Below, one piece after another: positions 1-1,508 of a stretch of DNA of 31,720 bases. The translations under genes were made by a program, and so were the position numbers. Source of the stretch: Escherichia coli (GTDB lineage: Bacteria; Pseudomonadota; Gammaproteobacteria; Enterobacterales; Enterobacteriaceae). The stretch lies in the NCBI RefSeq assembly GCF_003334385.1, contig NZ_QOWN01000053.1; one strand, given 5' to 3'. The notes below the pieces were generated by a model. That model saw only the letters and a list, made by a program, of their open reading frames with translations, was not told the DNA's origin and did no database searches. Position 1 is the stretch's first letter, and each line of letters starts with the position of its first letter.

Positions 1-1508
1 GGGCCTGCATCACCTTTGGGACCAGCTGCACCAGCCGGTCCCCGTGGGCCTGCGGGCCCCACTGCACCAGGTGCGCCAGGTTCCCCCCTGTCCCCCTTCG
101 GTCCGGGGACTGCTGCCCGGGTTGCTGCCTCTTCTGCCTTCGTTTTTGCTGCCTGCACTTCTGCCATTACCGCTTTCACAGCCTTTGGGGTTGCCGCTTT
201 TGTTTCATCATCGCTGTTGGTATCGCTGCTCAGCTGTACAACACCTTTCTGTGATGTGCTGGCATCCGGAACACTGGCGACACTGCCTGCGGGACCCGCA
301 GGACCTGCGGGGCCGGTTTCTCCCCGAGGGCCTGCGGGACCTGCCGGACCTGTTGCGCCGGGTTCACCTTTATCCCCTTTCGGGCCGGTTTGCCCTGCCG
401 GACCCTGTGGTCCGGGTGGTCCGGCCTCTCCACGTGGGCCGGTGTCACCTTTCGGCCCCGCAGGTCCGGTCTCACCGCGCTCTCCCTTTGCTCCTGCCGG
501 CCCCGGCTCACCTCTCGGACCAGTATCCCCCTTTGGTCCCTGAGGCCCCCCCGGGTCTCCTTTTTCGCCTCTGGCCCCGGTTTCACCACGCGGCCCCATT
601 GCTCCCTGTGGCCCGGTCGCACCACGTGGGCCAGATGGCCCTGTTGCGCCAGCTGGCCCCTGTACTCCCTGAGGTCCCCGTTCTCCTGTATCACCTTTCT
701 GGCCCGGTATGCCCTGAGGTCCGCGCTCTCCCTGCTCACCTTTCTCCCCACGCGGACCCGCCGGACCTGTTTCACCACGAGGACCAGCATCACCTTTCGG
801 CCCTGTATCGCCTTTAGGTCCTCGTGCATTCTCAGCCATACGTCTGGCTTCTTCAGCACTAACTGTAGCAGCCTCAGCACGTTTAAGAACGTCTCCGGCG
901 GCCTCCTGAGCCACTCTGGCGGTTTCAGCATGTTGTCTGGCCTCTTTCGCGTCTGCTGCCGCTGCCTTTTCAGACTCACCTGCCCGGGTCGCCGCCTCTG
1001 CAGCCTCACTGGCTTTTTGTGCAGACTCCGTCGCTTTGCTGGTCGCAGCCTTCGCGCTTTCTGATGCAGTCTTCGCACTGGCAGCAGCGCTTTCCTTCGA
1101 CTGTGAAGCCTGATTATTTTTCACCGCCGTGTCTTCGTTCAGACGACGAATCGTGGCAAGGTCATCCGCCACATTGTTCTGTATCTGCCGGAAATCTGTC
1201 AGCAGTTCTCCGGGTATGCTCACCTCAACAAGACTGCGGCGTAACAGCATATTGAGCGTCACCGTACTTTCAGTCCCCTCAATACGCACACGTCCGTAGA
1301 CAGCAGTCTTCCCTCTCACCGTCACTGAAACCGCATACTCCCCCGGCTCCATCGTCATGCCGTAATAGCCTGTTGACGTGGTGACTGCCGACGCGCTGGT
1401 GCCACTGAGTGCATCCGGTGAAACAGTCAGCGCCGTCAGCGTAATGTTCGCATCTGATACAACCTGACCATCAGGCGATTTCAGCGTCCCCGAAACAACA
1501 ACACTCAC
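1..1508 (-). CDS. Tail fibre protein with collagen-like Gly-X-Y repeats; partial, 3' end lies beyond the left window edge
   Basis: Minus-strand frame not in the ORF track because it has no in-window stop. GTG start at 1508 overlaps the upstream TGA, with GGAGGTG SD 6-9 nt upstream. Spot translation gives [14 protein letters not shown]... at the N-terminus and long [37 protein letters not shown]... blocks (about 295-835 and 1-150). Frame openness only spot-checked. Confidence 0.7.

Follow-up and report, generated by a model that had tools for sequence, protein, structure and literature searches.

The collagen-like side tail fibres of the EPclA-D family were named by Ghosh et al. in 2012, who showed that these proteins trimerise, that their collagen part forms a genuine helix and their Ala-rich part (PCoil) a trimeric coiled coil, and that globular domains stand at the termini (PMC3368898). 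The triple helix was shown biophysically for EPclA and EPclB. Z1483 of 933W and ECs1228 of Sp5 are both EPclB, with the module order PfN-PCoil-Col-Pf2-Col-PfC, and the first collagen block (Col1) of EPcl proteins carries a conserved interruption of the form G-X-P-G-G-P-X-G (PMC3368898). The PfN and Pf2 modules are shared by lambda Stf and StfR (PMC3368898). For Sp5, the fibre gene (ORF67, ECs1228) was found to be essential for plaque formation and lysogenisation, and the tail ends were labeled by antibody (PMC5155283). A cryo-EM preprint on phi24B describes six lateral fibres, each a trimer of gp61, with the N-terminal domains of gp61 attached at the junction of the nozzle and adaptor rings.

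The locus analysed here lies at the edge of the window, which is the whole stretch of E. coli DNA of 31,720 nucleotides that was analysed. Translation of the minus strand of positions 1-1508 gave a single stop-free frame of 502 codons. The fibre starts at the GTG at 1508-1506, which overlaps the TGA of the preceding gene (ATGTGA), and the identical start is used in the RefSeq/GenBank annotation ('tail fiber protein') of every relative that was fetched. The window holds the 5' three-quarters of the fibre gene; the 3' end and the tip lie beyond the window edge. The two genes concerned are as follows.

1..1508, minus strand: 5' part of the lateral (side) tail-fibre gene (from the translation, the annotation of relatives, and phrog_366)
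1505..2155, minus strand: upstream gene of 216 aa, DUF6682 / 'phage adaptor protein' (from the RefSeq annotation of relatives and phrog_399)

Against PHROGs, the fibre matched phrog_366, tail fiber protein (E = 1.9e-159), and the upstream gene matched phrog_399, structural protein (E = 8.7e-94). Through its 5' part, the fibre DNA matched 193 phage records, of which most are Stx-converting phages, and it was also matched in 421 of 5,426 complete E. coli genomes; the closest phage relatives of the window are PhiR12_3 and PhiR5_2. The module order is of the 933W type, with the DUF6682/adaptor gene, small structural genes, a major capsid gene of the N4-gp56 family, the portal gene, and the terminase gene, and the fibre gene stands directly downstream of the DUF6682/adaptor gene, as it does in 933W and in all relatives. 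This place in the capsid-tail module, right after the adaptor gene, is shared with 933W L0121, Sp5 ORF67, and phi24B gp61. Neither a stx ORF nor a tRNA is present in the window. The gene encodes the lateral tail fibre of a short-tailed lambdoid E. coli prophage that is 933W/phi24B-like (Sepvirinae-type) and stx-negative, and it is a further allele of the already known and well-studied family of collagen-like side tail fibres.

The domain order of the encoded protein is PfN, Ala-rich coiled coil, collagen block 1, Pf2 repeat, and collagen block 2, with the following coordinates in the window.

1125..1508, minus strand: PfN N-terminal domain, the tail-docking part, aa 1-128 (Pfam on the relative L001; near-identity to L0121)
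822..1124, minus strand: Ala/Glu/Ser/Lys-rich 'PCoil', a predicted trimeric coiled coil, aa 129-229 (composition)
279..821, minus strand: collagen block 1, aa 230-410 (triplet count; PF01391 in a relative)
105..278, minus strand: non-collagen linker with the Pf2 'phage tail fibre repeat', aa 411-468 (PF03406 in L001)
3..104, minus strand: opening 11 triplets of collagen block 2, aa 469-502, which runs on past the window edge (triplet count)

Pfam was run on a full-length relative of 653 aa from phage PhiR5_2 (L001), the N-terminus of which matches that of the window fibre. In this relative, CarboxypepD_reg was matched at 5-85 (E = 3.5e-7), phage_tail_N (PF08400) over 1-128 (E = 0.012), Collagen (PF01391) three to four times, and Phage_fiber_2 (PF03406, E = 1.2e-15) between both collagen blocks. 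Transferred from L001, the coordinates of the Pf2 match correspond to approximately nt 135-260 of the window. The linker region also gave a weak PDB match to region 106-154 of the Mu tail fibre protein S. Within aa 129-229, Ala makes up 35% of the residues and Leu, Ile, and Val together 5%, which fits the PCoil as described in PMC3368898. Collagen block 1 consists of 31 Gly-X-Y triplets, one extra residue, and 29 triplets, and has no other break. Apart from the weak, Pf2-like match to Mu protein S, the search of PDB sequences returned generic collagen matches only, and it gave no solved structure for a homologue of the fibre as a whole. The NCBIfam collagen-adhesin models (Scl, Lcl) scored below cutoff with matches driven by composition, and the fibre was not assigned to them.

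By homology, the fibre would be a trimer with a genuine collagen triple helix, as in EPclA and EPclB. Its PfN domain would attach it to the tail beside the adaptor ring, the coiled coil would be followed by two collagen shafts joined by the Pf2 segment, and at the end of the shafts, outside the window, there would be a C-terminal tip that can be exchanged.

With EPclB, the window fibre shares the order PfN, Ala-rich PCoil, Col, Pf2, Col, and length steps of three residues (Col) and seven residues (PCoil); its Col1 is longer, at 181 aa vs 157. The best BLASTP match to 933W L0121 has 63% identity including gaps in collagen block 1. Residues 1-128 are near-identical between the two proteins, and a gap of 14 residues (two heptads) falls in the Ala-rich part of the alignment. 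The near-identical N-terminal attachment domain and a collagen-like shaft with a short non-collagen interruption are features common to the Stx-phage fibres and the window fibre; the window prophage differs from the Stx phages in being without stx and in the number of triplets in the collagen blocks. At the C-terminus, the tips of the nearest full-length relatives are without a Pfam match and without PfC, and these relatives therefore resemble EPclC and EPclD there. For PF06820 (PfC) itself, no match was obtained in the nearest full-length relative, and the window stops before the C-terminus. The downstream partner in the close relatives is a gene of the DUF4376 fibre-assembly type, unlike the arrangement in 933W. 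Lambda Stf has a different C-terminal tip and chaperone and is not known to have a collagen shaft.

The single interruption of collagen block 1 is the motif G-D-P-G-G-P-Q-G at aa 317-324, which is exactly the published EPcl motif. The break in register is thus the conserved motif of the family and was already known. On the coding strand the site reads GGA GAC CCG GGG GGG CCT CAG (G-D-P-G-G-P-Q), and the homopolymer falls within the following codons.

546..554, minus strand: codons CCG GGG GGG, encoding Pro319-Gly320-Gly321 (sequence)

The run is C7 on the plus strand at 546-552, with a G at position 545. A first-pass annotation of this DNA had described a collagen-like tail fibre with two Gly-X-Y blocks split by a non-collagen segment, and aa 230-410, 411-468, and 469-502 bear this out. 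It had also placed the tract in frame within the first collagen block with a shift of the Gly-X-Y register at the tract, and both statements agree with the triplet count given above. Two details are corrected here: the run that had been given as eight C at 545-552 has seven, and it encodes Pro-Gly-Gly where three glycines (GGG) had been given.

In 5000 shufflings of synonymous codons within the gene, G7 arose in 2.3%, each time at the Pro-Gly-Gly site; in a regular Gly-X-Y repeat whose X is never Gly, no run longer than G6 can arise. The codons chosen here are thus mildly unusual, and the whole allele is fixed for them. Elsewhere in the window, 16 further homopolymers of 7-8 bases occur, so that one 7-mer is unexceptional. 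Runs as long or longer include C7 at 9976-9982, T8 at 15684-15691, and T8 at 23007-23014. The G7/C7 run would be a neutral by-product of the spelling GGG GGG at the Pro-Gly-Gly site. At the protein level, the one-residue Gly-Gly insertion most likely perturbs the triple helix of the first collagen shaft locally, as a register shift that resets the stagger of the chains, a kink, or a flexible point.

The length of the tract was compared across relatives. It was read in 15 phage or E. coli loci that carry the allele of the window, and IMG/VR and the metagenome collection were scanned for the exact flanks with any 3-12 bases allowed between them. A 121-nt query across the tract was also compared with the 5,426 complete E. 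coli genomes. All 15 loci read GGAGACCC-G7-CC, and the gap was GGGGGGG in each of the 25 contigs recovered (9 viral, 16 metagenome). Together with the window, exactly G7 was found in 41/41 sequences of the allele, all of them consensus assemblies in which rare length variants within a population would not show. The allele is carried by 18 of the 5,426 complete genomes, and the best match in each was at least 99% identical and gap-free; query and subject lengths were equal, and these best matches are therefore without an indel. No frameshifted copy at the G7 site was found among the sequences compared. In several genomes (e.g. NZ_CP060083.1 and NZ_CM142927.1), the identical 121-nt collagen segment is present in two to three distant copies, which indicates that the same fibre allele occurs in more than one prophage per genome and offers a substrate for recombination.

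Other alleles spell the same two glycines differently. The window has GGG GGG, which makes the G7, where 933W has GGA GGT (CCG GGA GGT with the preceding codon). The O104:H4 Stx2 prophage and the FORC_069 prophage have CCG GGG GGA, and two further prophages have CCC GGC GGC. Since Gly-Gly is kept with differing codons in distant alleles, selection acts on the protein motif and not on the repeat tract. Loss of one base (G6) gives 103 out-of-frame residues and then a stop, and gain of one (G8) gives 11 and then a stop; either slip loses half of Col1, Pf2, Col2, and the tip. With stops this early, a slip would not alter the length of the fibre usefully and would be purely destructive.

These comparisons bear on the proposal of the first-pass annotation that slippage at the tract could switch the distal fibre on or off or alter its length. 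An invariant tract length had been named there beforehand as the finding that would refute the switch, and invariant is how the tract was found. The part of the proposal that concerns fibre length is not supported either, as a slip of +1 or -1 only truncates the protein and the length varies by whole triplets. Judged by the assemblies compared, the length of the G7 run is genetically stable, and the run does not work as a switch. The probability is put at about 0.9 that the whole is best explained as a known lateral collagen-like fibre in which G7 is a stable by-product of codon choice.

Three other explanations were considered. As a rule, homopolymer tracts that act as switches have 8-9 bases or more and belong to organisms in which mismatch repair is weak. 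That the G7 is a contingency (phase-variation) locus, at which slipped-strand mispairing switches the distal fibre in a subpopulation of the phage, is favored by the position of the tract inside an ORF whose frame is destroyed by ±1, by its being rarer than expected from codon usage, and by the precedent of hypermutable polyG tracts in receptor-binding genes of Campylobacter phages (Sorensen et al. 2021 Cell Rep 35:109214, in PMC10877375). The Campylobacter (Fletchervirus) tracts are likewise G runs in a fibre or receptor-binding ORF where ±1 shifts the frame. The window tract differs from these in being invariant in all sequences compared, shorter (7), and replaced by non-repetitive synonymous codons in other alleles, and the host of the window is E. 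coli, with intact mismatch repair. The run is also short, it is G7 in every independent sequence of the allele and gap-free in all of the 18 complete genomes, and the sole frameshifted relative is mutated away from it. The tract is not a conserved feature, as other alleles encode Gly-Gly with non-repetitive codons, and because the Sp5 homologue is essential for plaque formation and lysogenisation (PMC5155283), the 'off' state would be a dead phage. A contingency locus is thus considered very unlikely. There is an even slimmer chance that GGG GGG provides an allele-specific, heritable off-switch of low frequency, with G6 or G8 virions that lack the distal fibre. Such a switch, if true, could matter if fibre-less particles still infect via the central needle; the authors of the phi24B cryo-EM preprint hint at this in regarding the tip of the lateral fibre as unlikely to trigger DNA release.

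The run could also be read as a site of programmed translational or transcriptional slippage that yields a second, truncated isoform made of PfN, the coiled coil, and half of Col1. Homopolymer runs can promote slippage of RNA polymerase or the ribosome, and the -1 frame is open for 103 codons. Against this, the site is not conserved at the nucleotide level in 933W, in the O104:H4-type allele, or in other alleles, the shifted frames are rich in Arg, Pro, and Gln and hold no domain, with neither a C-terminal trimerisation domain nor a tip domain, and the Sp5 study found no frameshift-inducing sequences in its tail-fibre gene (PMC5155283). Programmed slippage is regarded as exceedingly improbable. 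An error of sequencing or assembly in a repetitive, GC-rich gene, which would account for both the tract and the register shift, has in its favor that assemblies break at the collagen-coding repeats (8 of the 25 contigs end inside the gene, and the window starts inside it too) and that a probable 1-nt error, next to a different G run, is present in one relative. The same G7, however, recurs in 40 independent sequences that stem from different projects and sequencing platforms, the frame is open on both sides of the tract, and the Gly-Gly interruption is a published, conserved feature of the protein, which leaves this explanation with a practically negligible probability. The reading of a known lateral fibre with a stable G7 is retained.

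The relative with the probable 1-nt error is UCPROB-001 (L012), in which an A directly 5' of a G6 run is missing at gene position 1375; its fibre gene is annotated as a pseudogene with a frameshift. This G6 run (AGG GGG GAA; C6 at 83-88 of the window) is exceeded in the gene only by the G7. The match of the sister strain UCPROB-002 is one base longer than that of UCPROB-001 (1,463 vs 1,462). Either a true mutation or an error of sequencing could account for the deletion in UCPROB-001.

Among the relatives, the fibres vary in length and at the tip. The number of triplets is 19-29 in the part of Col1 that follows the interruption and 20-50 in Col2; the ORFs of complete relatives are 594-705 aa and always in frame. 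Fibres that are otherwise near-identical carry, after Col2, at least four C-terminal tips that are unrelated to one another (the C-terminal 90-130 aa of L001-L047), with endings that include ...LFQRAY, ...LFQRIA, and ...IFERIA, and a DUF4376 chaperone-like gene comes next in the annotated E. coli relatives. In E. coli SW071611 (L015), an in-frame deletion of 147 nt removes 16 triplets and the extra Gly-Gly residue, which leaves an uninterrupted block of 44 triplets at aa 230-361; this copy is without its C-terminus and is annotated as incomplete. The differences in whole triplets and the differing tips indicate that variation proceeds by recombination or slippage of Gly-X-Y units and by module exchange. 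Length differences in multiples of three were also stated by Ghosh et al. 2012 (PMC3368898). Diversity in these fibres thus lies in triplet-unit indels and tip swapping. Beyond the correct annotation of the fibre gene, the analysis has little consequence; what is gained is the corrected tract length of 7 and a clear negative result for phase variation by homopolymer.

The 8 environmental contigs (of L023-L047) that end inside the gene do so in the collagen/Pf2 part, like the window. The Gly-X-Y repeats probably break short-read assemblies, and given that these contigs end within the collagen repeats, the window edge may itself be an assembly break. The metagenome contig OHAQ01003310.1 (L037) has a fibre ORF that ends at aa 442 in a tail sequence of unrelated appearance, with 56 nt of contig left after it. 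The stop is away from the G7 tract and may reflect a chimeric assembly or an insertion.

RNA elements were observed elsewhere in the window. Two copies of STnc100 (Rfam RF02076, 130 and 139 bits) lie on the minus strand at 15693-15902 and 16178-16371, in an ORF-poor gap between a Q-like antiterminator gene (16912-17538) and a 667-aa ORF (13488-15491). This gap is the position where Stx phages carry stxAB; here it is without a stx ORF, and the matching phage records annotate a SASA-family esterase in the region. A C4 antisense RNA (RF01695, 66 bits) and an isrK Hfq-binding RNA (RF01394, 69 bits) are adjacent on the minus strand at 20009-20196, a pairing typical of the P1/P7-type antirepressor control region in lambdoid prophages.
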